Shown piece by piece: positions 4,498 through 62,028 of a DNA stretch of 64,000 bases (the stretch's first letter is position 1; each line of letters opens with the position of its first letter). Source of the stretch: Candidatus Multivorans sp. (GTDB lineage: Bacteria > Acidobacteriota > Thermoanaerobaculia > Multivoradales > Multivoraceae); NCBI GenBank assembly GCA_965208755.1, contig OZ242353.1, positions 3,866,341 through 3,930,340 of the forward strand, given 5' to 3'. Made by a program: the position numbers and the translations under genes. The notes under the pieces were generated by a model. The model was not told where the DNA came from, did no database searches, and saw only the letters and a program-made list of their open reading frames with translations.

Positions 4498-6972
4498 ATG
4501 ACTCCAACCGTCGTGCCAGGCCCTGTAGCGGAACCGGAGTTGCCGCGCCGCGCGAGCGTGATCGTGATCGGCGGTGGCGTGATCGGTTGCTCGGTCGCCT
4601 ACCACCTCGCACGCTCGGGGTGCTCCGATGTGCTGCTGCTCGAGCGCCGGCAGATCACTTCCGGCACCACCTGGCATGCCGCCGGCCTGCTCGGTCAGTT
4701 GCGGCAGTCGGTCACGATGACGAACCTCGCTCGCTACACGAGCGAGCTCTACGCCCGCCTCGAGCAGGAGACGGGACAGTCGACTGGCTATCGCCGCTGC
4801 GGCTCCTTCTCGGTCACCGCCGACCCCGAGCGGTTCGAGGAACTCAGGCGCGCGGCTTCACTGGCGAAGGTGCTCGGGCTGCCGGTCAATGTGGTGACGG
4901 CGAAGACGATCGGGGAGCGGGTGCCGCTGCTTGAGACGTCCGACCTGCTCGGCGGACTGCACATCCCCGGCGACGGCTACGCGAGTCCGACGGACGTCAC
5001 CCTGGCGCTGGCCGCGGGCGCCCGCTCCGCCGGCGCCCGGATCGTCGAGCAGGTGCCGGTGATCTCCGTTCGCACCGCCGGGGGACGCGTCATGGGCGTC
5101 GCGACGGAGCAGGGTGACGTCGATGCGGACTGCGTCGTCCTCTGCGCCGGCATGTGGACCCGGGAGCTGGCCGCATCGATCGGCGTCAACGTCCCGCTGC
5201 ACGCCTGCGAGCACTACTACGTGCGGTTCGACGATGTCGAGGGACTCGATGCGAACCTGCCCGTCGTGCGGGACTACGACGCCATCTCGTACTTCAGGTG
5301 CGACGCGGACAAGCTGATCGTCGGCGTCTTCGAGCCGAACGCGCGGCCCTGGGGCATGGACGGCATTCCCGAGGACTTCTGCTTCGACGAGATCGCCGCC
5401 AACCGCGAGCATTTCGAGCCGTTGCTCCGCGGCGCCAGGGAGCGGATGCCGGCACTCCAGTCGGCCGAGGTCCTGCAGCTCTTCTGCGGCCCGGAGAGCT
5501 TCACGCCGGACGTCCGCTACCACGTCGGCCCGGCCCCCGAGTGCGAGAACTGCTTCGTCGCGGCCGGCCTGAACTCGATCGGAATCCAGTCCGCGGGCGG
5601 GATCGGCAAGGTCGTTGCCGAGTGGATTCTCGAAGGGCATCCGCCGGCCGACCTCTGGGAAGCGGACGTGCGCCGCAACATGCCCTTCCAGGGCAACCGC
5701 AGGTACCTGCGCGAGCGGGTCTCCGAGAGTCTGGGCCTGCTCTACGCCATGCACTACCCGTATCGCCAGTTCGAGACGGCGAGGGGCGTGCGCCGGTCAC
5801 CGCTCTACGACCGGCTGGAGGCAGCCGGCGCCTGCCACGGGGAACTCGCCGGCTGGGAGCGCCCGAACTGGTTCGCGCCGGCCGGCGTGCCGGCCCGCTA
5901 CGAGTACAGCTACGGGCGCCAGAACTGGTTCGAGTACTCGGCCGCCGAACATCGGGCCGTGCGCGAAAACGTGGGACTGTTCGACCAGTCGTCGTTCGCG
6001 AAGTTCCGCCTGGAGGGCCGGGATGCGGCCAGGGTGCTCAACCGGGTCTGCGCCAACGACGTCGACGTGCCGCCCGGCCGCATCGTCTACACCCAATGGC
6101 TCAACGAGCGCGGCGGCATCGAGGCGGATCTCACGGTGACGCGCCTGGCGGAAGACAGTTTCCTCGTCGTCACCGCCGTCACCTCCGAGGTGCGGGACTT
6201 TCACTGGCTCAAGGGCCACACTCCGGACGACGCGCACTGCGTGTTGACGAACGTGACCTCGGCGATGGGCGTGATCTCCCTGATGGGCCCGGCTTCCCGC
6301 GCGCTGCTGCAGTCCCTCACGCCGGCGAACCTGGCCAACGAGGCGTTCCCGTTCGCGACCAGCCGCGAGATCGAACTGGGCTACGGCCTGGTTCGGGCAT
6401 CGCGCATCACCTACGTCGGCGAACTCGGCTGGGAGCTCTACGTTCCCACGGAGTTCGTGGCCGGCGTGTACGACGAGATCGTGGCTGCCGGCGAGGCCTT
6501 CGACCTCGTGCACGCCGGCTACCACGCCCTGGACTCGCTGCGCATCGAGAAGGCCTATCGCCACTGGGGCCACGACATCACCGATCAGGACTCGCCGCTC
6601 GAAGCGGGCCTCGGGTTCGCCGTCAGGTTCGGCAAGGCGGGCGGCTTCATCGGGCGCGAGGCGCTGCTCAGGGAGAAGGAGAGCGGCATCGCGAAGCGCC
6701 TGATCCAGTTCAGGCTCCGGGATCCGCGGCCGCTGCTCTACCACTACGAACCGATCTGGCTCGGGGACAAAATCGCGGGCTACGTCACTTCTGGGAACTA
6801 TGGCCACAGCCTCGGAGCGGCCGTCGGTCTCGGCTACGTCCCCATGTCGCTGTTGCCGGACTTCCCCAAACTGCCCGGTGGCTTCGAGATCGAGGTCGCG
6901 GGCGTTCGCGTCCCGGCCGAGGCTTCCCTCAGACCCATGTACGACCCTGGCGGCAAGCGCGTTCGCAACTGA
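4498..6972 (+). CDS. FAD-dependent oxidoreductase fused to a GcvT-like aminomethyltransferase domain (dimethylglycine/sarcosine dehydrogenase family)
   Basis: The start MTPTVVPG...VIVIGGGVIGCSVAYHL is a Rossmann FAD motif, followed by a C-terminal folate-binding GcvT-like domain. About 824 aa. The 1309-aa track ORF 3043-6972 is a run-on of this frame. Confidence 0.75.
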   Translation: MTPTVVPGPVAEPELPRRASVIVIGGGVIGCSVAYHLARSGCSDVLLLERRQITSGTTWHAAGLLGQLRQSVTMTNLARYTSELYARLEQETGQSTGYRRCGSFSVTADPERFEELRRAASLAKVLGLPVNVVTAKTIGERVPLLETSDLLGGLHIPGDGYASPTDVTLALAAGARSAGARIVEQVPVISVRTAGGRVMGVATEQGDVDADCVVLCAGMWTRELAASIGVNVPLHACEHYYVRFDDVEGLDANLPVVRDYDAISYFRCDADKLIVGVFEPNARPWGMDGIPEDFCFDEIAANREHFEPLLRGARERMPALQSAEVLQLFCGPESFTPDVRYHVGPAPECENCFVAAGLNSIGIQSAGGIGKVVAEWILEGHPPADLWEADVRRNMPFQGNRRYLRERVSESLGLLYAMHYPYRQFETARGVRRSPLYDRLEAAGACHGELAGWERPNWFAPAGVPARYEYSYGRQNWFEYSAAEHRAVRENVGLFDQSSFAKFRLEGRDAARVLNRVCANDVDVPPGRIVYTQWLNERGGIEADLTVTRLAEDSFLVVTAVTSEVRDFHWLKGHTPDDAHCVLTNVTSAMGVISLMGPASRALLQSLTPANLANEAFPFATSREIELGYGLVRASRITYVGELGWELYVPTEFVAGVYDEIVAAGEAFDLVHAGYHALDSLRIEKAYRHWGHDITDQDSPLEAGLGFAVRFGKAGGFIGREALLREKESGIAKRLIQFRLRDPRPLLYHYEPIWLGDKIAGYVTSGNYGHSLGAAVGLGYVPMSLLPDFPKLPGGFEIEVAGVRVPAEASLRPMYDPGGKRVRN

Positions 6973-7024: not shown

Positions 7025-8236
7025 ATGCACTCCCGACCTTCCCAGGCCGTGATCCTGGCCGGCGGCCGGGGCACCCGCCTGGCGCCCCTGACGGACACGC
7101 TGCCCAAGGCGCTGATTCCGTTCCACGGCAAGCCGTTCCTCGGCCACGTGATCGACATGCTGCGCGAACAGGGCTTCGAGCGCGTCCTGCTGCTGCTCGG
7201 CTATCGCGCGGAGGCGATGATCGACCACTTCGGCGACGGCTCGGCCTACGGTGTCGAGATCAGCCACCGGGTGACGGCGCCGGATGACCTGACGGCGCAC
7301 CGGGTCAAGGACGCGGCCGGCGAACTGGACGACCTGTTTCTGCTCCTCTACTGCGACAACTACTGGCCGATGCAGTTCGACCGGATGTGGCGCGCCTACG
7401 TCGACTCCGGGGCGGCGGCCCAGATCACCGTCTACGCGAACCGCGACGGCTACACCCGCGACAGCGTGATCGTGGGCGACGATGGCTTCGTCACCGTCTT
7501 CGACCGCGGCCGGACGACGCCGGGGCTCCGCGGAGTCGAGATCAGCTACGCGATCCTCAAGAAGTCGGCGGTGCTGCCGCTCCTGCCGGATCACCAGGAG
7601 CTGTTCGAGGAGGCGGTCTATCCGGCACTGACTGCCCGGGGCGAACTCCACGCCTATTGGAGCGAGCACCGCTACTACAGCGTCGGCGGCCACGAACGGT
7701 TGCCGCTGACCGAGGCGTTCTTCGCCCGCACGCCGACGATCATCCTGGACCGCGACGGCGTCCTCAACGTGCGCCCGCCGCGGGCGGAGTACGTCTGCAC
7801 GCCTGACGAGCTGCTCTGGCTGCCGGGCGCCCGCGAGGCGCTCGCCGCCTTCAACCGGGCCGGTTGGCGGGTGCTCGTCGTGTCGAACCAGCCCGGAGTC
7901 GCCCGTTGCCGCATGACGCTGGACGACCTGGCGGCGGTGCATCGACGCCTGTGCGGCGAGGCCGAGGCCGCGGGCGGGCGGATCGACCGCATCTACTTCT
8001 GTCCTCACGGCTGGGACGAGGGTTGCGACTGCCGCAAGCCGGCGCCGGGAATGCTCTTCCAGGCTCAGCGCGATCACCACCTCGACCTGACCAGGACGAC
8101 GTTCCTGGGCGACGATGAGCGCGACGGCCAGGCAGCGGACGCGGCGGGCTGCCCGTTCGGCCTGGTCACCGAGAGCGAACCGCTGCTCGCGCACGCCGAG
8201 CGGCTGCTGGCCTTGCGAACGGCGGCGGCGGGATGA
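7025..8236 (+). CDS. Bifunctional sugar-1-phosphate nucleotidyltransferase / HAD-IIIA phosphatase. Resembles a fusion of D-glycero-D-manno-heptose-1-phosphate guanylyltransferase HddC with D,D-heptose bisphosphate phosphatase GmhB.
   Basis: N-terminus [16 protein letters not shown]...KALIPF is the nucleotidyltransferase G-x-G-T-R motif. C-terminus [10 protein letters not shown]...VVSNQ...[14 protein letters not shown] is a GmhB/histidinol-phosphatase HAD motif with a Zn-binding Cys cluster. Confidence 0.8.
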
Positions 8237-40446: not shown

Positions 40447-40608
40447 GGCGAGCGCCGGAAGGCCGTCCCTGCGGCCGCTCGCGCTTGATCGGACGATGAG
40501 GAGTCGGCGCTCGCTGCGGTCGGCTGCGCTCCGGTTGGGCGTCAGTCGATGTAGGGCATCGGCCGTCGCTTGCCGACAGCCCGCGGGGACGGCCTTCCGG
40601 CGCTCGCC
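40447..40608. repeat. 162-bp element bounded by 28-bp near-perfect terminal inverted repeats. MITE-like, or a long stem-loop RNA.
   Basis: GGCGAGCGCCGGAAGGCCGTCCCTGCGG at 40447-40474 versus CCGCGGGGACGGCCTTCCGGCGCTCGCC at 40581-40608. They are reverse complements with a single mismatch. Confidence 0.5.
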
Positions 40609-46772: not shown

Positions 46773-48665
46773 TCAAGCGACGCTCGGGTCCGCCTGGACC
46801 GCCAGCTCCCGGACCACGAAGGACGAGCGTCCGCTGTTCTTCTCCCAGATGCCGACCGCCAGCCGGTAGGAGCCCGGCGGCAGCAGCACTTCGCTGCGGA
46901 CAGCGATGTACTGGCCTGCCGCTTGCTCGAGTTCGGCGACCGGCACGTTCAGCTCGAAGTCGAAGTGCTGGGGCGGCATTCGGCTGCCGTCTTCGCGCTG
47001 GACCTGAACCACGACGCGGAAGAAGCCGCTGGCGACCGGGTTGCGGGTCGCCCGGGTCGGCGCGAGTTCAAGGTCGCCGATCGGCAGGCTGGCCCTGACT
47101 TCCAGCGGCGTCTGCCCCGGTCGGTCCGGCCGTTCTCGCGACGCGGACCTCCTGACCTGGACCTCCATACCGTGGTTGTTCTCCTCCCAGCCGAACAGCA
47201 GCGTGCCCCAGGCTCGGCTGGCGAGGTTCTGCTGGATCGTCACCGGCGCGTAGCTCGCCCGATAGCGGAGCGAGCCGTTCCGGGCGAGGGGCCGCTGGCG
47301 CAGCCGGAGCGTGATCTCGCGAATGCCGGAGTCGCCCATCGAGTCGGGCGGCGTGAAGGAGAGCGAGTAGTAGGTCGAGATGTCGGTGCGGGTCGACTGC
47401 AGGAACTCGGCGACGCCGGTGTCGGAGACGAAGGAGAGGCCGCCGGTCAGGCCGGCCAGACTGTTCAGGCCTGTCCGCACGTTCGACAGCTCGACGATCG
47501 AGCCGCGGTCCTTGGCGCTCTCGCCGAGTTCGCTGATCGCCGGGTCGATGACCGGCGGCTTGAGCGGATAGAACGTCACCCGGTGGGTGTTCGCGAGCGC
47601 CGCCAGTTGATCGAAGGCGTCCGCGCAGCTCAGCTCGGCGGCCATGGTCTGGAAGGCGAAGGCGCCGCCGTCGTCGACCTGGACGATGTTCGTCGCTCTT
47701 CCCATGCGGTCGGCCCGGTCAACGCCGAAGGGTCGGTGGTTGCGGTCGTTCAGGTCGAGCGAGCCGGGCGCGCTGATCATCTCGTCGCCCTCGAGCTGGC
47801 GGGAAGAGCCGGCGAGACGGTCGTACATCGTCTTGGCGGCGCTGTCGAGAGGGTGGCGGGGGAGCCCGTCGCTCACGAACAGGATCGCCTTGCGGCCGGG
47901 AACGAAGGCGAGCGCTTCGACCAGGGAGCGCACCGCGCTGACGGTCAGCAGCGTGTCCTGCCGCAGGGCCTGCCCGAAGCTCCGGAGGTTCGCCTCCACG
48001 CTGGCGAGGGAGGCCTCGCCGAGACGGTAGCGGCTGCCTCTCGCCGCCATCAGCCGCAGCGTCTCCCTCATCGCCAGGGAAGCGGAGCGCTGCTGGGAGC
48101 GCAGCGTCGTCGTCGGAATGTCCCGGCCCATCGCGGCTTCGATCGTCGTCCGCACGGCCGCGCGGTCGCGAGTCGGCGACAGCAGCGGTTCGAGACGCTC
48201 ACCGAACGCCGCGGCCGCCACCCAGGTCGGGTTGGCCTCGATCTCCTCGTCGAGGGCTTCCGCGATCTCGGCCAGGGCCGCGTCGCGGTGCTTCCGCTGC
48301 AGGTGGCGCTCGTCGATGAACAGGAGAATCGTCAGTCGCCCGGTGACGGTGGTGCGGAGGTCCTGGCCTGCCGCGACGCTCAGTATCTCCACCGGTTCGT
48401 TCTCGACCTTGAGTTCGAAGTCGTCCTTGGTCAGGCCGGTCACCGGCCGATCGGAGGAGTCGGTGACGACGGCGTCGAGACTGATCAGCCGGACGTCGAT
48501 CGACTCGCGGAGCACGATGTCCTCTCGAATCGGATGCTGCCGCGGCGAACGGTCCTGCGCGCGGGCCGCTTCCGGGCCCGCGAAGTGGGCCGCGGCCGTG
48601 AGCGCCATGGCGGCGGTAGCGACCAGCAGCCTCGGCGGCCGGCGGTGAAGTGCGGAACCCGTCAA
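46773..48665 (-). CDS. VWFA-related acidobacterial domain protein, secreted
   Basis: Signal peptide. vWA domain. Paralog of 34236-35903. Confidence 0.65.
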   Translation of the reverse strand: MTGSALHRRPPRLLVATAAMALTAAAHFAGPEAARAQDRSPRQHPIREDIVLRESIDVRLISLDAVVTDSSDRPVTGLTKDDFELKVENEPVEILSVAAGQDLRTTVTGRLTILLFIDERHLQRKHRDAALAEIAEALDEEIEANPTWVAAAAFGERLEPLLSPTRDRAAVRTTIEAAMGRDIPTTTLRSQQRSASLAMRETLRLMAARGSRYRLGEASLASVEANLRSFGQALRQDTLLTVSAVRSLVEALAFVPGRKAILFVSDGLPRHPLDSAAKTMYDRLAGSSRQLEGDEMISAPGSLDLNDRNHRPFGVDRADRMGRATNIVQVDDGGAFAFQTMAAELSCADAFDQLAALANTHRVTFYPLKPPVIDPAISELGESAKDRGSIVELSNVRTGLNSLAGLTGGLSFVSDTGVAEFLQSTRTDISTYYSLSFTPPDSMGDSGIREITLRLRQRPLARNGSLRYRASYAPVTIQQNLASRAWGTLLFGWEENNHGMEVQVRRSASRERPDRPGQTPLEVRASLPIGDLELAPTRATRNPVASGFFRVVVQVQREDGSRMPPQHFDFELNVPVAELEQAAGQYIAVRSEVLLPPGSYRLAVGIWEKNSGRSSFVVRELAVQADPSVA

Positions 48666-48774
48666 CGGACACCCATGCTAGCGCCAGCGCCGGGCCGCGG
48701 CGGAACCAGGCGAGCGGGCTGCTATTCTCCCCGTTCGCGACCAGAGCAGGCCCTCATCGGAGGAGGCAGATTGT

Positions 48775-49612
48775 GATGAAGCGGAGTCTCACGGAACGGG
48801 CGGTGTTGACGCAGCTCGCGGCGTTGCTGCTAGCGGCATTGGTGCTCGCGGCGGCGCCCGCGGCAGGGCAGGACACCGACTACAGGGCGCCGCGCACCCA
48901 CGACGACAAGCCGGATCTCAACGGGATCTGGCAGGCGCTGGGCGCGGCCCACTGGGACATCGAACCGCACGCCGCGCGTCACGGCCCGGTGGTCGAGATG
49001 GCGGCGCTGGGCGCGATTCCCGGCGGTCTCGGCATCGTCGAAGGCGGCAGAATTCCGTACCTGCCGGAGGCCCTGCAGAAGCGCGATCAGAACCGCGAGA
49101 ACTGGCTGGCGCTCGATCCGGCGGTGAAGTGCTACATGCCGGGCATCCCTCGCGCCAACTACATGCCCTTCCCGTTTCAGATCGTCCAGACACCCGAACA
49201 TGTGCTGATCGCTTACGAGTTCGCCAGCGCCAGCCGCGTGGTGTACATGGACAGGGAGGGCTTCGAGGCTCCGTTCGACACCTGGATGGGACACTCGATC
49301 GGGCGCTGGGAAGGGGAGACGCTGGTGGTCGACGTGACGAGCCAGGTGCCCGATACCTGGCTCGATTCGAGCGGCAACCACCACACGGACGCGATCCACG
49401 TCGAGGAGCGCTGGACCGCGATGAGCCCCCATCACCTCCAGTACGAGGCGACGATCACGGACGAGAACGTCTACAGCGAGCCCTGGAAGATCAGCCTGCC
49501 GCTCTACCGCCGGGTTGACCCGAACGTCCAGCTACTCGAGTTCAAGTGCGTCGAGTTCGCCGAGGAGCTGATGTACGGCCACCTGCGCAAGGGCGCCGAC
49601 CCGGGTCCCTGA
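48775..49612 (+). CDS. Secreted hypothetical protein (family A)
   Basis: RBS GGAGGAGG. Start MKRSLTERAVLTQLAALLLAALVLAAAPAAGQ. Shares PDLNG/PDLTG and IGRWEGETLVVDVT / IGWWEGDTLVVETT blocks with 50088-51188. Confidence 0.55.
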
Positions 49613-49640
49613 CCGGCACCGCCACGAAGAGGAGAACAGC

Positions 49641-50067
49641 GATGAAGTTCCAGCGAATCGTCCTACTGGCAGCAGGCCTGGCTCTGGTGCTCGCCATCCC
49701 GCTTGCCGCTCATCACGCCTTCTCGGCCGAGTTCGACGCCGATCGGCCGCTCCAGCTTCGCGGCAAGGTGACGAAGATGGAGTGGATCAACCCCCACGCC
49801 TGGATTCACCTGGAGGTGATGAATGACGACGGCAGTGCGACCGTCTGGATGGTCGAGGGCGGCACGCCGAACACGCTCGCCAGGCGCGGCTTCACGAAGA
49901 GGTCGCTTCTGCCGGGGACCGAGATCGTCGTCGACGGCTACCAGGCGAAGGACGGCTCGAACAAGGCGAACGGCCGCGACCTGACCTTCCCGGACGGCCG
50001 CAAGCTGTTCATGGGTTCATCCGGCACGGGCGCCCCGCGCGACGGCCGGGATCCGACCGAGCAGTAG
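49641..50067 (+). CDS. DUF6152-like small secreted protein
   Basis: RBS GAGGAGAA. Signal peptide then HHAFSAEFD...VTKMEWINPHAWIHLEV, typical of DUF6152. Confidence 0.55.
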
Positions 50068-50087
50068 CGGAAGCAGCGGCTCGGGAG

Positions 50088-51188
50088 CTACTGGCCGCCG
50101 CTGGCCGCGCTGCGCGTCTCGTCCTCGAGCAGTCGCGCGCCCCTGAGGATGTTGCCCATCGCGTAGTTCCCCTCGTGGCAGGCGTACTCGTAGACCTTGG
50201 CCGGCGTGCCGGGCCACAAGTACTCGCCGCTCCAGGGCGCGCTCCACACGGTCGGATCCTCGACCGTGAAGGCGTAGAGCAGGTCGTCCGCGTTGACCCG
50301 GGTGAAGCGCTCGGTCACCTTGAGGTTCCGTGAGGCGAGGAAGAGCGCCGGACGGTCGATGAAGTTCGTGGTCTCGACCACGAGCGTGTCGCCCTCCCAC
50401 CAGCCGATCGAGTCGCCGAGCCAGCGGCGCTCGTCCTCCGGGATGTGCTCGCCGCCGATGCGGACGATGCGGGCGTCGTGGACCATCTCGACCAGGATCA
50501 TCAGGTGGTCCTCGGTCTGCACGATCCGCTTGGCGTTGTTGTAGAGCACGGGCAGCATGGGCGGCCCACCGGTGGAGCCAAAGCCGATCAGGCAGCGTTC
50601 GGGGACGCCCAGAGTCTCCGGACCGTCGTACGGACCGGGGCCTTCGATCTCGAGCCACCAGGCGGTGCCGTCGTTGCCGCGTCTTCGCCCGCGCCGCTCG
50701 GACAGCCGCTGCATCGTCTCGGCGGTCAGTTGCGGCATCCTGCCGTTCGCCGGGTCGACGATGATCGAGGTTCGGAACCTGCCGTCGATCGAGAACACGT
50801 CACTGCCGCGATCCGTCCAGAAGTTGTTGTAGCCGCCGACGTTGCCGGCGCCGCTCGTCTCCCGGAACTCGTCGCCCAGGCCGATCGGCGGCGCGCCGCC
50901 GGGCGGGGGCGGTTCGTCGATCTGGCGGGTAGCGGCCCGGGCCGCCACCCGCTGGCGCTCCCGTTCGACGATCTCCTGCGCCTGCTCGGACGTCAGGTAC
51001 AGGTTGTCTCCGAACTCCCGCGGACGCTGCAACGGCGTCAGCGTGGCGATCTCGTAGTCGCCCGTGAGGTCGGGACGGCCCGAGGCCGTGCGCGGGATCG
51101 CGTCGTCGTCGGCGGCAGGCGCGGCGGGCGCCGCGAGCAAGACGATGGCGGCGGCCGTGGCGGCAGCGAGGGAGACTCTGCTCTGCAT
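50088..51188 (-). CDS. Secreted hypothetical protein (family A paralog)
   Basis: Signal peptide. Block similarity to 48775-49612. Confidence 0.55.
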   Translation of the reverse strand: MQSRVSLAAATAAAIVLLAAPAAPAADDDAIPRTASGRPDLTGDYEIATLTPLQRPREFGDNLYLTSEQAQEIVERERQRVAARAATRQIDEPPPPGGAPPIGLGDEFRETSGAGNVGGYNNFWTDRGSDVFSIDGRFRTSIIVDPANGRMPQLTAETMQRLSERRGRRRGNDGTAWWLEIEGPGPYDGPETLGVPERCLIGFGSTGGPPMLPVLYNNAKRIVQTEDHLMILVEMVHDARIVRIGGEHIPEDERRWLGDSIGWWEGDTLVVETTNFIDRPALFLASRNLKVTERFTRVNADDLLYAFTVEDPTVWSAPWSGEYLWPGTPAKVYEYACHEGNYAMGNILRGARLLEDETRSAASGGQ

Positions 51189-51374
51189 GGTGGCTCTCCT
51201 TATCGATTGCCGGGGGGCTCCGTTATACCAGCATGCGGTGGCGTCGGGAACTACGTAGGAAGCTGGCCAAGCGGCTGGCGAACGGGGTTCTGAATCCAGT
51301 TCTCGTCTAGGTCTGCAGGGGAAGTGATTCCCATAGCCGACTTGCTATAGGCTCAGTATTCCGTGCCCGATCCG

Positions 51375-51470
51375 CACCCGGTCCACAGGCCACGCGCGGC
51401 CCAGCTACCATCCGCTCGGACAGCAGATCCGGCCTGCTGCGCCTATCTCCTGCCCAGATTCAGTCGCTCT
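51375..51470. repeat. Degenerate copy of the ~190-bp intergenic repeat family (see 54722-54925 and 58975-59165)
   Basis: CACCCGGTCCACAGGCCACGCGCGGCCCAGCTACCATCCGC is similar to ACCCGGCTCGCAGGCCCACGGCGCG...AAGCTACCGCGCC in copy A. Confidence 0.35.
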
Positions 51471-51688
51471 TCGTTGCCGACGCCCGATCCTGCAAGACGC
51501 TAGCCCGATGCACGAGACGAGAACAGCGCCTGGCAGGCGTCCCGAGAGCGCGGGGGCGTTCCCAAGGTGATCGAGATGTTCCCAAAGGCTGGCGCCGCTG
51601 AGAACTGGTTCGAGGACACGACCGACCAGATGGCCGCGGTCGTTCCAGGCTTGGACTGCAAGCGCCTCCGGCACCGAGAGCTCGTCCC

Positions 51689-52729
51689 ATGAGGACGAAA
51701 CACACTGCTGTCAGTCTGTTCTCCGGAGCTGGCGGCATGGACATCGGAGTCGACCGAGCCGGATTCAAGACGGTTTGCGGGATTGACCTCGATCCTCACT
51801 GTGCAAACACACTCCGCCGTAACGGTCGCGGCAAGACAGTGTGGAACGCCGATGTTCGGATAGTCGATCCTGACCGTCTCCGAGATGCCCTCGGCATGAA
51901 GAGAGGCGATTTGCGGCTCCTTCATGGCGGGCCGCCGTGCCAGCCGTTCAGTCAGATAGGCAAACGCGCCGGCATTAGTGACCCGAGAGGCGCGCTCGTC
52001 TTTGAGATGGCGAGGTTCGCCGAAGCGCTTCGCCCGACGGCGGTGATGATCGAACAGGTCGCCTACTTTCTCCGTGCGAGAATGCCGGATGGCAGGCCGG
52101 TATCAGAGGCGCTGGCCGAGGAGTTTCGCCGCTTGGGCTACGACATGTTTGTGCGTGTTCTCGACGCGAGCCAGTATGGTCTCCCGCAACGGAGGCAACG
52201 GGCTATCCTGGTATGCGTGCCGAGGGGGCAGCACTTCTGGTTCCCGCAGGGCAAAGGTGAATCCAAGACCGTCGGAGCCGCATTGCGTGGTCTTCCGGAG
52301 CCGGTTCGTCGCGGCGAGAAGCCAGCCCTGCCGAACCATGTCGACGTTACGCCAGACCGAGACCGGGAACGCATCTCATACGTGCCTGAAGGACTGTGGT
52401 TGTCCAAGTGCAAGGACGTTCCGCCGCAGATCATGCAGCGGCTCACCCGTAAGGACACCACGAAGTTCCGTCGGCTTGATCGAGCTTCGCTCGCGCCGAC
52501 TCTTCGGTGCGGTGAGGCTCCCTATCACCCGATCGCGGACCGGTACATCACACCGCGGGAGGCGGCACGGCTACAGAGCTTCCCGGACTCTCACGTCTTC
52601 ACTGGCCCGATTCGAGGTCGCAGCGGAAGTGTGCGGGACCTCGATCAGCATCGCCAAGTGGCGAATGCGGTGCCGCCGTTGCTCGCCCGCGTGGTAGCGA
52701 ACCAGCTGTCTGAGACGCTATGCCTGTAG
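51689..52729 (+). CDS. DNA (cytosine-5)-methyltransferase
   Basis: Motif I LFSGAGG, motif IV GGPPCQPFS, motif VI EQV. Confidence 0.85.
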   Translation: MRTKHTAVSLFSGAGGMDIGVDRAGFKTVCGIDLDPHCANTLRRNGRGKTVWNADVRIVDPDRLRDALGMKRGDLRLLHGGPPCQPFSQIGKRAGISDPRGALVFEMARFAEALRPTAVMIEQVAYFLRARMPDGRPVSEALAEEFRRLGYDMFVRVLDASQYGLPQRRQRAILVCVPRGQHFWFPQGKGESKTVGAALRGLPEPVRRGEKPALPNHVDVTPDRDRERISYVPEGLWLSKCKDVPPQIMQRLTRKDTTKFRRLDRASLAPTLRCGEAPYHPIADRYITPREAARLQSFPDSHVFTGPIRGRSGSVRDLDQHRQVANAVPPLLARVVANQLSETLCL

Positions 52730-53682
52730 TTGCGGAACTGTACGGGCAGACCCTCGACGACCGCATTGATCCCAGCCTTTGCCGAACCGCTCAGTGCCCG
52801 TTCATTGGGGCGATTTGCGATGGTGGGGGAAACCGCGATATGGCGCGAGTCAGCGCCTCGGATTTAACGCTTGGCCACCTTTTCTCACGCTCGGTGGGGC
52901 AGGAGACCGAGGGCTGGTTGCCGTGCGGCGTCTGCTCCGTGCGCACTAGCAGCAACAAGGCCTGGGCAATCTGTCCTCATCGCCTGTTTGGCTTCGGTCC
53001 GAACGGTGTATCTCCCAGGCACCGTGATCTGGCTCAGCGGGTGTTTCGCCTCGCGGGCTTCGAGCCAGGCCAACTGGTAGGCGTCTGGCCGGAGATCACC
53101 CTGTCTGAGATAGGTGAAGGCGGCCAGCAGTTCAGGTACCGACTGGACTACGTTCTTCGGGCCATGGACGCTGCTTCGTCGCCGCCGATTATCGTTGAAG
53201 TCATGACGTGCTCGACATCGGGGGGCAAGAAAGCAAAGGGCACAGACATTCAGGCGGCTTTCAAGCGCGCCGTACTGTTCGCTCACACGCCCGCAAAGGA
53301 GGAAGTGGCATCTCCTGGCGTCAACCTGCGGCAAGTTTGGGCGCGGATGGCTTCTCAACTCGTGGCTAAGTCCGAAGCCGCGAACAGCTGGGGCGGCCGG
53401 ACCATCTGGATCGTGCAGGACCTGCTCGCCGACTACATTCGCACACAAACCGCTCTACCGTTGGATGATCTGCACTCCGACGACTGGTCGCCTCACGAGG
53501 TCAACATGGTGGTGGCCGATCTGGATGGGCCAGTGGCTCTTTACGCGGGACCCATCCGTTCTCAGAACGGAGACCGGCGCTGCTGGCTTGAGATCCTCGG
53601 CGCTCCTCATCTCCCTTCTCTCGCGTCCATGACTAGGAAGTTGAACGACGTTCAGCCGTTAGCGGTCGTCGCGGCCCTCTAG
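52720..53682 (+). CDS. NotI-family type II restriction endonuclease
   Basis: N-terminal Cys cluster and WAICPHRLFGFGPNG block aligned by eye to NotI (TGTCPF...C...GVCVVN...WLVCPNR...LFGYGP). Start overlaps the MTase stop by 10 nt. Confidence 0.65.
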   Translation: MPVVAELYGQTLDDRIDPSLCRTAQCPFIGAICDGGGNRDMARVSASDLTLGHLFSRSVGQETEGWLPCGVCSVRTSSNKAWAICPHRLFGFGPNGVSPRHRDLAQRVFRLAGFEPGQLVGVWPEITLSEIGEGGQQFRYRLDYVLRAMDAASSPPIIVEVMTCSTSGGKKAKGTDIQAAFKRAVLFAHTPAKEEVASPGVNLRQVWARMASQLVAKSEAANSWGGRTIWIVQDLLADYIRTQTALPLDDLHSDDWSPHEVNMVVADLDGPVALYAGPIRSQNGDRRCWLEILGAPHLPSLASMTRKLNDVQPLAVVAAL

Positions 53683-53693
53683 GGAAGGCGACC

Positions 53694-54107
53694 ATGGTTG
53701 ACACCGTGTCTCGGGAACGCCGGAGCGAGATTATGGCCCTCGTCAGGTCGAAGGACATGAAGCCCGAGATGGCGGTGCGCCGGATCACTCATGCGATGGG
53801 CTACCGCTACAGGCTTCACCGGAAGGAACTGCCAGGAAGGCCGGATCTGGTGTTTCCGGCCCGCAGCAAGGTGATCTTCGTTCACGGTTGTTTCTGGCAC
53901 CAGCACTCACCTTGCAAGAATGTGCGAGAACCGAAGTCGAACCGAGACTACTGGCTCCCGAAGCTCAGACGGAACGTCGAGCGAGATGTGGAGAACCAAG
54001 CGCGGTTGTCCGAGATCGGTTGGCGAGCGTTGGTCCTGTGGGAGTGCGAGGTGCGAAGTCGGAACGATACAGCCCACCGCATCCGAGAGTTCTTGGAGCG
54101 TCCATGA
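53694..54107 (+). CDS. vsr: Very-short-patch repair endonuclease
   Basis: LVRSKDMKPEMAVRR...FVHGCFWHQHSPCK...WECE, canonical Vsr. Confidence 0.85.
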   Translation: MVDTVSRERRSEIMALVRSKDMKPEMAVRRITHAMGYRYRLHRKELPGRPDLVFPARSKVIFVHGCFWHQHSPCKNVREPKSNRDYWLPKLRRNVERDVENQARLSEIGWRALVLWECEVRSRNDTAHRIREFLERP

Positions 54108-54283
54108 GGTGTCGGGACGAGCCGAGGTCCAAGCGCCCCTGCGGGCGTCCGAAGCGTCTGAGGCCGGAGTTTCCCGATCCGACGCGACGAGGGACGGTCT
54201 GGGAGAACAACGTTTGCCAACGCGAAGGCTGCTTGGTCCGAGCCTCCGGCCTAGGAGCCGACTGAAGGCCTGACGACACGCTG

Positions 54284-54622
54284 GTGGACCTCCAAGGCTG
54301 GCTTCCCGTGATCGGCGTCGCCCTCGCAGCGACCGCTCTGCTCACTAGAGTCGTCTGGCGGCGAGCTGAGGCGCAGGGAACCAAGAGGGCGCTTCGCTTG
54401 GAGATCTTCGAGCAGGCCAGAACCGGGGAACTCCGAGGGCCGGCGCTTCGCCACAAGGCCCAAGATGCTGGCTTGGCGAAGCGAGAGGTTCAGTTCGTCG
54501 TCGAGTACCGAGGGAAGCAGAACAAACTCCTGAATCACGGGTACGGGGCTTCGAGCGAGCAAGACGAAGCCGAAGCTGCAAGACTCACGCAGGAGTTTGA
54601 GCGCATCCTGCTAGGCGACTGA
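54284..54622 (+). CDS. Small hypothetical protein with an N-terminal TM helix
   Basis: GTG start. WLPVIGVALAATALL TM segment, the rest is charged and helical. Weak call. Confidence 0.3.
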   Translation: MDLQGWLPVIGVALAATALLTRVVWRRAEAQGTKRALRLEIFEQARTGELRGPALRHKAQDAGLAKREVQFVVEYRGKQNKLLNHGYGASSEQDEAEAARLTQEFERILLGD

Positions 54623-54721
54623 GCCCGCCTGGCTGGCTTCCGATGCAGGCCCACGGCGTCCCGTGACCGGGGACCGGAGGAGAGGGTTGGCGCCGGGCCT
54701 TGTTGGTCGCCATGCACAGTG

Positions 54722-60569: not shown

Positions 60570-61186
60570 TGAGAGCTATCTCCTTCAAGGGTTGTGGGTT
60601 GGGGTGAAACGGACGGCATCGTGGCCGTCCGGGAAATCGGTGGCGGGCCGCTGGTGAAGGACAGAACGACGCCGTCCCAGGATCGTTCGAAGGTCCTGGA
60701 ACTCATGCGCAGCCGCCCGAGGGAGGGGTCGTCGATGACGAGTTCGTCGCCGGCGCTGCGAATGACGACGAAGTGATCGCCGTGCACGTGCGCGATCGCG
60801 GGGAGCGGGATGTCGTGGAGCCGCTGGACCGGTAGCCGGAGGCCCTGGCTCGTCACGCCTCGCTTTTCCGCGGCCTTCTTGAGCGCGAGCAGGCTGGTGC
60901 CGTCCGGGCCGGTTCCGGTGGCGAGCTCGAGCTCGGCGAGGGTCGTATCCTGGATGCCCCAGTGATCGAGGACCATCTTCAGGGCCGCCGGGCCGCAGTC
61001 GGCGCGTCTCTGCTGGCGAACGATCTCGCCTGGGGCCGGCGCCGATGGGTCGAGCGTGGCGGCCCAGGCCAGCCGGTCCATGGTCGGCCCCAGGGCCCGG
61101 GCCGCGACCGTCACGAGACCGGCCGCGAGCAGCAGACCGGCAGCGGCCGCGTGCGGTGGGCGAATCCGGAATCGCTCAGAGTGCAT
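60566..61186 (-). CDS. Standalone peptidase C39 (bacteriocin-processing cysteine peptidase) domain protein with an N-terminal TM or signal anchor
   Basis: Internal Met start MHSERFRIRPPHAAAAGLLLAAGLVTVAARALG. QQRRADCGPAALKMVLDHWG (catalytic Cys) ... LPAIAHVHGDHFVVI (catalytic His). No ABC domains are fused. The track ORF extends to 61336 overlapping the upstream gene. Confidence 0.7.
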   Translation of the reverse strand: MHSERFRIRPPHAAAAGLLLAAGLVTVAARALGPTMDRLAWAATLDPSAPAPGEIVRQQRRADCGPAALKMVLDHWGIQDTTLAELELATGTGPDGTSLLALKKAAEKRGVTSQGLRLPVQRLHDIPLPAIAHVHGDHFVVIRSAGDELVIDDPSLGRLRMSSRTFERSWDGVVLSFTSGPPPISRTATMPSVSPQPTTLEGDSSQ

Positions 61187-61682: not shown

Positions 61683-62028
61683 CGCCGCCCTCCCGCGAAG
61701 CCGGTTGCCCGCCGGCGGATCGCCGGTCTCGTCCGGCTGTGCAGCATGGAGACCAGTGGTCCGGACCGCTCGCCGAGCATGCGGAACGCGCGCGTCAGGC
61801 CGGCTTCGAGGGCGCTGGCCGGAGGATGGGAGAGGCGGGGACTCCATTCGCGCAGCAGATGACGCGCGCCTGGAGCGGTTGGCGGTTGGCGGAGGTTCGG
61901 AGGGAGGTTCGGGGACGTCATCGTCCAGCTCCAGTCGTTCCGTTCGTGACGGCCGGACGGCCGTTGTCGGGTTGTCGTTGAGGTCGAGGGCGGTCGTTCA
62001 GCGGCCGCGTGTATCGACTAAGACGCAA

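Follow-up and report, generated by a model that had tools for sequence, protein, structure and literature searches.

A putative Type II restriction-modification operon with a remote relative of NotI and an accessory Vsr, most likely acquired as cargo of an IS1595-family element

Here we analyse a window of 64,000 nucleotides (nt) from Candidatus Multivorans sp. (contig OZ242353.1), in which positions 51689-54107 hold three co-oriented genes encoding a C5-cytosine methyltransferase (M), a protein of 320 amino acids (aa) that we call R, and Vsr. We propose that this cassette is a Type II restriction-modification (R-M) operon to which a repair gene has been added as an accessory, and that it arrived by horizontal transfer, most likely carried by an IS1595-family insertion sequence (IS) whose transposase later suffered an internal deletion; we consider this explanation highly probable. 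The evidence comprises the gene content, the fold of R, a strict linkage between M and R, purifying selection on the genes, a foreign composition, a relic of the transposase beside the cassette and, in other genomes, transposase-M-R (tnp-M-R) units bounded by inverted repeats. The features on which the argument turns are the following:

51519-51692, + strand: transposase relic, an IS1595/ISXO2-family gene with an internal in-frame deletion
51689-52729, + strand: M, 346 aa, C5-cytosine DNA methyltransferase (PF00145, TIGR00675, PADLOC MTase_II)
52720-53682, + strand: R, 320 aa, putative Type IIP restriction endonuclease with a NotI-like fold
53694-54107, + strand: vsr, 137 aa, very-short-patch repair T:G mismatch nicking endonuclease

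The three-gene islet of methyltransferase, endonuclease and Vsr described in a first-pass annotation of the window is borne out by the open reading frames (ORFs) and their domain matches. The reported 10-nt overlap of the first two genes agrees with the coordinates, the M stop codon TAG lying at 52727-52729 and the R ATG at 52720. Similarly, the statement that vsr follows 12 nt later is right when counted from the end of the R stop codon (TAG, 53680-53682) to the vsr ATG at 53694; the spacer itself is 11 nt long and contains GGAAGG. Because the alignments with orthologs begin at the first residues of all three ORFs (residues 1-7 in the case of M), we favour the M start at 51689 and the other ORF starts used here over the shorter starts of the public ENA metagenome record. 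The order M-R-vsr is common to the window and its nearest relatives, L002, L003 and L006.

M and R behave as a pair wherever they are found. Across 80 loci (the retrieved loci plus L001), every R homolog has an orthologous C5 methylase gene immediately upstream in the same orientation, so that the two genes are adjacent, co-oriented and co-inherited, as is expected of a Type II R-M system. The identity of the M orthologs ranges from 43 to 86% over the loci, and M divergence tracks R divergence. R is disrupted or atypical in 14/80 loci and M in only 4/80, the order of decay expected for a toxic endonuclease. Moreover, the ratio of nonsynonymous to synonymous substitution rates (dN/dS) against the closest relative, L002, which is 85% identical, is 0.059 for M, 0.065 for R and 0.128 for Vsr. 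All three genes are thus under purifying selection. Two genomes carry several M-R copies: an Alphaproteobacteria metagenome-assembled genome (MAG; OZ251539, loci L007, L026 and L056) and an Azotimanducaceae MAG (OZ251532, loci L021 and L042). In most of these copies R is truncated or frameshifted and M is intact, which would fit past transposition and a later loss of the endonuclease.

The family is widely scattered. Its carriers span more than 12 phyla and two domains, and almost all of them are uncultured. Among bacteria they include Acidobacteriota, Gemmatimonadota, Rhodothermales, Alpha- and Gammaproteobacteria, Chloroflexota, Thermodesulfobacteriota, Cyanobacteria (Ca. Synechococcus spongiarum), Bacteroidales, Bacillota, Actinomycetota and Planctomycetota, and the archaeal carriers are two MAGs, a Cenarchaeum and a Woesearchaeote. 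Many carrier names (Ca. Synechococcus spongiarum, Cenarchaeum, Ca. Porisulfidus, and the SB066x, RHO3 and CAR4 bins) are typical of MAGs from sponge and marine symbionts, habitats being read here from the record names only. Bacteroidales and Clostridia from gut and rumen carry a more distant branch, with 31-37% identity; the cultured Neglectibacter timonensis SN17 (L077) is likewise a distant member of the family. A tblastn search of R against plasmid and phage collections gave no match.

The assignment of R had to come from remote comparison. Against Pfam and NCBIfam at E<=10, R gave nothing relevant; the missing Pfam match is uninformative, since the copy of Pfam used holds no model that matches even NotI. 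In the PDB, neither phmmer nor hmmsearch at E<=10 found NotI or any other relevant match to R, and a profile of 22 R-family sequences found nothing relevant there either. The only PDB matches of that profile were to the cysteine-noose region of the respiratory syncytial virus G glycoprotein (PCxxCS...WAICxR, R residues 66-88, E ~0.6), a short chance resemblance and not homology. None of the 351 R homologs obtained at 90% clustering is named or bears a Pfam domain. When searched against 1.84 billion protein representatives, the R-family profile collected 282 clusters at 50% identity, 93 of them with E<=1e-30; the best 150 of the 282 were inspected. In PADLOC, R has a weak but significant match (1.4e-7) to the Type II restriction endonuclease profile PDLC03464, and NotI weakly matches the neighbouring REase_II profile PDLC03465.

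Profile-profile comparison is what joins the two families. With hhalign, the R family and the NotI family align with 96.8% probability (E 2.8e-10) over 210 colinear columns, from residues 3-242 of R and 14-270 of NotI. Sequence identity between R and NotI is only 18-23%, and a pairwise BLASTP of the two gives E 5e-4, a value from a single comparison. The NotI sequence, confirmed against the PDB, has a family of 1383 homologs of its own, more than the 282 clusters of the R family, and the best 120 of the 1383 contain no R-family member. On the strength of these profiles, R is best described as a remote relative of NotI at the level of fold or superfamily, outside the NotI sequence family proper, with the PD-(D/E)XK core and the N-terminal metal-binding domain that define the NotI fold.

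The four candidate metal ligands of R (C26, C33, C72 and C85) are invariant in 26 sequences, and hhalign pairs C26, C72 and C85 with the NotI-family invariants C42, C65 and C81; the pairing of C33 with C55 follows from order and invariance, because hhalign gaps that stretch, and the NotI ligand set C42/C55/C65/C81 is itself derived from invariance. The WxxCPxR element (R W82..C85-P86..R88, NotI W78..C81-P82..R84) is invariant in both families, as are the acidic catalytic residues (R E125, D143 and E160; NotI E145, D160 and E182) and the pattern of a shared helix (R N202..R209..Q213..K217; NotI N230..R237..Q241..K245). Thus, the Cys4 region and the WxxCPxR element, on which the earlier assignment to a NotI family had relied, hold at the level of fold and not at that of the sequence family. 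The third part of that argument, the LFG(F/Y)GP block, falls away: it is conserved in neither family and left unpaired by hhalign, and BLASTP pairs the two occurrences only across a 13-residue gap, so that this likeness is probably coincidental. The two proteins also differ in several respects. NotI (Nocardia otitidiscaviarum; PDB 3BVQ/3C25) has 383 aa, and residues 243-320 of the shorter R cannot be aligned with its C-terminal ~110 residues. The R family has an invariant CDGGGNR loop in the metal domain where NotI has its C55-x-K57 region, and at the catalytic Lys/Gln position the R family has an invariant Met162 in place of Gln184 of NotI.

The partners of R are identified with less effort. 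M matches PF00145 (DNA_methylase) at 6e-52 over model positions 3-323 of 324, TIGR00675 at 4e-45 over the full model length, and PADLOC MTase_II at 2e-74, and its translation contains the motifs of a C5-methyltransferase: I (FSGAGG), IV (GPPCQPFS), VI (IEQV), VIII (QRRQR), IX (REAARLQSFPD) and X (GNAVPP). Motif VI reads EQV and not ENV, as it also does in the L004 and L077 orthologs. Vsr matches PF03852 (7e-27), TIGR00632 (1e-43, model positions 1-119 of 119) and PADLOC Vsr (2e-28); against Escherichia coli Vsr (1CW0; 8e-28) it keeps the PGRPD, HGCFWHxH..C, NVERD and WEC motifs, and with them the catalytic Asp and the zinc-ligand motifs of the domain. A vsr gene lies within 6 kilobases (kb) of the cassette in 15/79 other loci (~19%), downstream, upstream or on the opposite strand. 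For a gene with roughly one copy per genome, this is far more often than chance would give, and Vsr is therefore a recurrent accessory of the cassette family and not a core part of it.

The composition of the islet is foreign to its surroundings. The coding cassette has a GC content of 0.616, the lowest of any 2.4-kb stretch in the whole 64 kb (mean 0.678, standard deviation 0.020); GC at third codon positions (GC3) is 0.70-0.75 in the cassette, against 0.80-0.93 for the genes around it, and nowhere in the window is the tetranucleotide deviation larger than at the cassette. The 500-base-pair (bp) junction upstream of the methylase (51189-51688), which had been described as intergenic and visibly less GC-rich than its surroundings, does have a lower GC (0.640), but this is only the 10th percentile of 500-bp windows, the cassette itself is lower, and 51519-51692 is occupied by the transposase relic. 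The compositional anomaly is thus real, but belongs to the whole islet and not to the junction specifically. DNA homology to the closest relative is limited to 51711-54055, and no other locus shares the genes that flank the cassette. Together with the strict M-R linkage, these observations uphold the earlier view of an acquired, self-contained R-M module with Vsr.

A likely vehicle for this acquisition emerged from the relatives. The alignment of one of them, L004, extends 74 nt further upstream, and the L004 methylase is preceded by an intact 323-aa transposase of the IS1595/ISXO2 type (DDE_Tnp_IS1595, 1e-43, plus Zn_ribbon_IS1595), whose stop codon overlaps the methylase start. A hidden Markov model (HMM) built from the three intact copies (L004, L040 and L049) was searched against the six-frame translation of the junction and matched a single frame with E 2.9e-9, model positions 8-40 being fused directly to positions 294-318. 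The N-terminal ~33 aa of a transposase are therefore joined here to its C-terminal ~25 aa, and the reading frame ends at a TGA that overlaps the methylase ATG (ATGA). This arrangement identifies 51519-51692 as an internally deleted transposase relic. The same transposase, intact or fragmentary, lies directly upstream of the methylase in L004, L040, L049, L025, L028, L046, L041 and L054, and in L030 transposase fragments lie downstream of its vsr.

In three of these relatives the mobile unit is still recognisable. The tnp-M-R units of L004 (3930-7138), L040 (3906-7183) and L028 (4264-7229) are ~3.0-3.3 kb long, and their ends carry related terminal inverted repeats of 24-31 nt beginning GGG(G/A)(A/C/G)TTA(C/T)A. 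The L004 unit is in addition flanked by a perfect 8-bp target duplication, AAACTTAG. L004 thus shows the transposase, inverted repeats and 8-bp duplication of an IS1595 element in full, and L040 and L028 show them in part; L049 has retained the left repeat only, and its R is truncated. The window copy is a fossil of an IS1595-family element and not a member, and with its transposase internally deleted the cassette would now be fixed in place.

Several observations weigh against this explanation. No IS terminal repeats or target duplication were found in the window, where scores stay at background, and a transposase trace is present in only ~10/80 loci; it is consequently the 57-residue relic that carries the case for an IS origin of the window copy. 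The search for a relative with an empty site was likewise negative: the closest metagenomic relatives of the 366-aa flanking gene reach no more than 67% identity, and none has adjacent Yip1 genes. As for R, a Foldseek search against the PDB did not find NotI, the best match having E 0.16, and the catalytic mechanism of NotI is not simply transferable, since the Lys/Gln position is an invariant Met.

Other readings of the locus can be set against these data. The first-pass annotation had considered a NotI-like, 8-bp GC-rich specificity plausible for R, and had pointed to GCGGCCGC at 3-10, 40471-40478, 61143-61150 and 62001-62008, where it is indeed present each time. R would then be a NotI isoschizomer or another 8-bp GC-rich cutter, and M would protect the 17 GCGGCCGC sites of the window. 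We consider this unlikely, although the fold and the aligned metal and catalytic residues fit it. NotI is reported to read base pair 2/7 through N230, H189 and G190 (PMC3089450), of which N230 and G190 are retained in R as the invariant N202 and as G168, but H189 is replaced by S167, the overall identity is low, and the C-terminal ~80 residues of R have no counterpart among the last ~110 of NotI. Restriction enzymes this divergent commonly differ in specificity. The modification partners differ as well: upstream of notIR, two Nocardia otitidiscaviarum genomes have a gene for an N6_N4_Mtase (PF01555) and not for a C5 enzyme. Since the modification chemistry differs, the target recognition domains (TRDs) of the two methylases are not comparable, and a derivation of the specificity from a TRD comparison with M.NotI was dropped; searched alone against the PDB, the TRD segment of M gave no informative match, only motif IX of 3G7U and DNMT1. 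Site frequencies do not help this alternative, GCGGCCGC being not depleted (17 observed against 20.6 expected in the window, an observed-to-expected ratio (O/E) of 0.83, and 0.88 when pooled over the 80 loci, 0.99 Mb). Among palindromic tetramers GGCC shows the strongest depletion, both over the loci (0.82) and within 78 pooled cassettes (0.70), which are homologous and not independent; this is compatible with a GGCC-containing site. CGGCCG, with 0.90 in the window and 0.78 over the loci, is no more depleted than several unrelated palindromes, the pooled O/E of CGATCG, CGCGCG and CTCGAG being lower than the values of both GGCC and CGGCCG. Palindrome depletion is thus uninformative on the site of R. 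An 8-bp GC-rich site finds no support, and some of the evidence speaks against a NotI-like specificity for GCGGCCGC.

It could equally be asked whether R cuts DNA at all. A catalytically dead or repurposed NotI-like protein, for instance a DNA-binding regulator or a nickase, would leave an orphan methylase with Vsr, and the invariant Met lends itself to this idea, as a review of PD-(D/E)XK enzymes lists Lys, Glu, Gln and Asn, but not Met, at this position (PMC4081073). The Met is invariant across the family alongside three invariant acidic residues, which speaks for a conserved variant of the active site and not for decay; the low dN/dS of R, its obligatory position against and overlapping the methylase, its preferential loss relative to M and its match to the PADLOC Type II profile all point the same way, and we find this possibility improbable too. 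Less probable still is that the cassette is ancestral to the genome and owes its low GC merely to amino-acid composition. A resident origin would sit well with a window in which no tRNA, integrase or significant flanking repeats were found and with the missing empty-site comparison, but it would leave unexplained the GC3 contrast with the neighbouring genes, the tetranucleotide outlier, the adjoining relic and the occurrence of the same cassette in unrelated contexts in two domains.

In the R-M operon that we favour, homology suggests the following division of labour. The methyltransferase would methylate a cytosine in a short, probably palindromic, G+C-rich site of the host DNA, and R, as a NotI-fold PD-(D/E)XK endonuclease, would cut the same site when it is unmethylated, its N-terminal Cys4 metal cluster scaffolding the elements that read the DNA. 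Vsr would nick 5' of the T in T:G mismatches arising from deamination of 5-methylcytosine and thereby initiate short-patch repair, which would offset the mutagenic cost of the methylase. We infer these activities, as well as a translational coupling of M and R, from the kinship of the proteins and the overlap of their genes. It is also tempting to speculate that R represents a NotI-fold family with a D...E-x-M active site and a CDGGGNR loop, always joined to one C5-methylase lineage, which recognises a site new among characterised enzymes and has spread between phyla as the passenger of an autonomous IS1595-family element, that is, an R-M system carrying its own transposase. We offer this last idea tentatively, as possible but on the whole doubtful.

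Known systems show several of these traits in other combinations. M.EagI is described as a C5 enzyme that methylates the inner C (PMC4722110). Judged by description and not by sequence, the EagI/Eco52I systems (C^GGCCG) thus resemble the cassette in combining a C5 methylase with an enzyme for a GC-rich site. Their endonucleases belong to the ~300-320-aa size class, and NotI and EagI are similar in sequence. As in E. coli Dcm/Vsr and other pairs of an m5C methylase with Vsr, including the V.-type nicking enzymes catalogued with R-M systems, a Vsr homolog is encoded beside the C5 methylase. In contrast to dcm-vsr, where vsr overlaps the methylase gene, the vsr of the cassette follows the endonuclease gene, and in the cassette family as a whole it is facultative and variable in position. 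Also known are IS1595-family elements with passenger genes. R-M units with inverted repeats and 8-bp duplications were described by Furuta, Abe & Kobayashi (2010, PMC2853133), and in one of these units a transposase-like gene is decayed. The relatives of the cassette share with those units the terminal inverted repeats and, in L004, the 8-bp duplication, and they differ in having an intact, identifiable IS1595/ISXO2 transposase whose stop codon overlaps the methylase start. Because such R-M units have been described before, the tnp-M-R units are a clean further example and not a new principle.

The practical consequence lies mainly in annotation. About 280 clusters (at 50% identity) of proteins now called hypothetical would become NotI-fold restriction endonucleases tied to one C5-methylase lineage, which would put right how defence islands are annotated in many uncultured bacteria and archaea. 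R might serve as a reagent if its site proved to be GC-rich and either long or new. In addition, the tnp-M-R relatives provide a clear example of an R-M system inside an IS1595-type element, and they explain the odd junction of the window as a decayed mobility gene. Our understanding of R-M systems or of Vsr is left unchanged. The system is of an ordinary kind, and its family is poorly annotated.

On either side of the cassette and the relic, two further segments belong to the description of the locus:

51189-51518, no strand: rest of the junction, in which no recognisable gene, RNA, promoter consensus or IS terminal repeat was found
54108-54650, + strand: probable right-hand tail of the acquired segment, containing an uncalled 112-aa ORF at 54284-54622

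The promoter of a divergent 366-aa gene and the left border of the acquired DNA presumably lie in the left segment; no sigma-70-like sites were found in 51189-51518, and no Rfam elements in the junction. In the right segment, the 112-aa ORF (+ strand) has a cassette-like composition (GC3 0.717, GC 0.628), unlike its neighbours, and encodes an N-terminal hydrophobic segment. Neither Pfam nor PADLOC matches it, the other loci contain no homolog, and the public annotation of this contig omits it. This ORF may be part of the acquired tail, or not a gene. From about 54600 onwards, GC climbs to 0.71.

Some minor observations concern the surroundings of the cassette in this and other genomes. A second C5 methylase gene, only ~30% identical, lies a few kb from the cassette in L030 (3140-4765), L002 (4814-5758, - strand) and L029 (8152-9137, - strand). 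Immediately before the L030 copy lie fragments of the IS1595-type transposase described above, which suggests that this transposase carries methylases of more than one kind. In L037, the M-R cassette is flanked by an internally palindromic repeat of ~90 nt in inverted orientation (4512-4602 and 7807-7896); this repeat bears no relation to the IS1595 ends and resembles a repetitive extragenic palindromic (REP) or miniature inverted-repeat transposable element (MITE) type of sequence. Finally, the left flank of the window (48650-51188) holds a cluster of two paralogous proteins of ~320-366 aa, annotated without function, and a DUF6152 protein, DUF6152 being the only Pfam assignment in the cluster. 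Many contigs of soil and marine metagenomes contain the cluster as well (loci L083-L162), often with paralogs in tandem.

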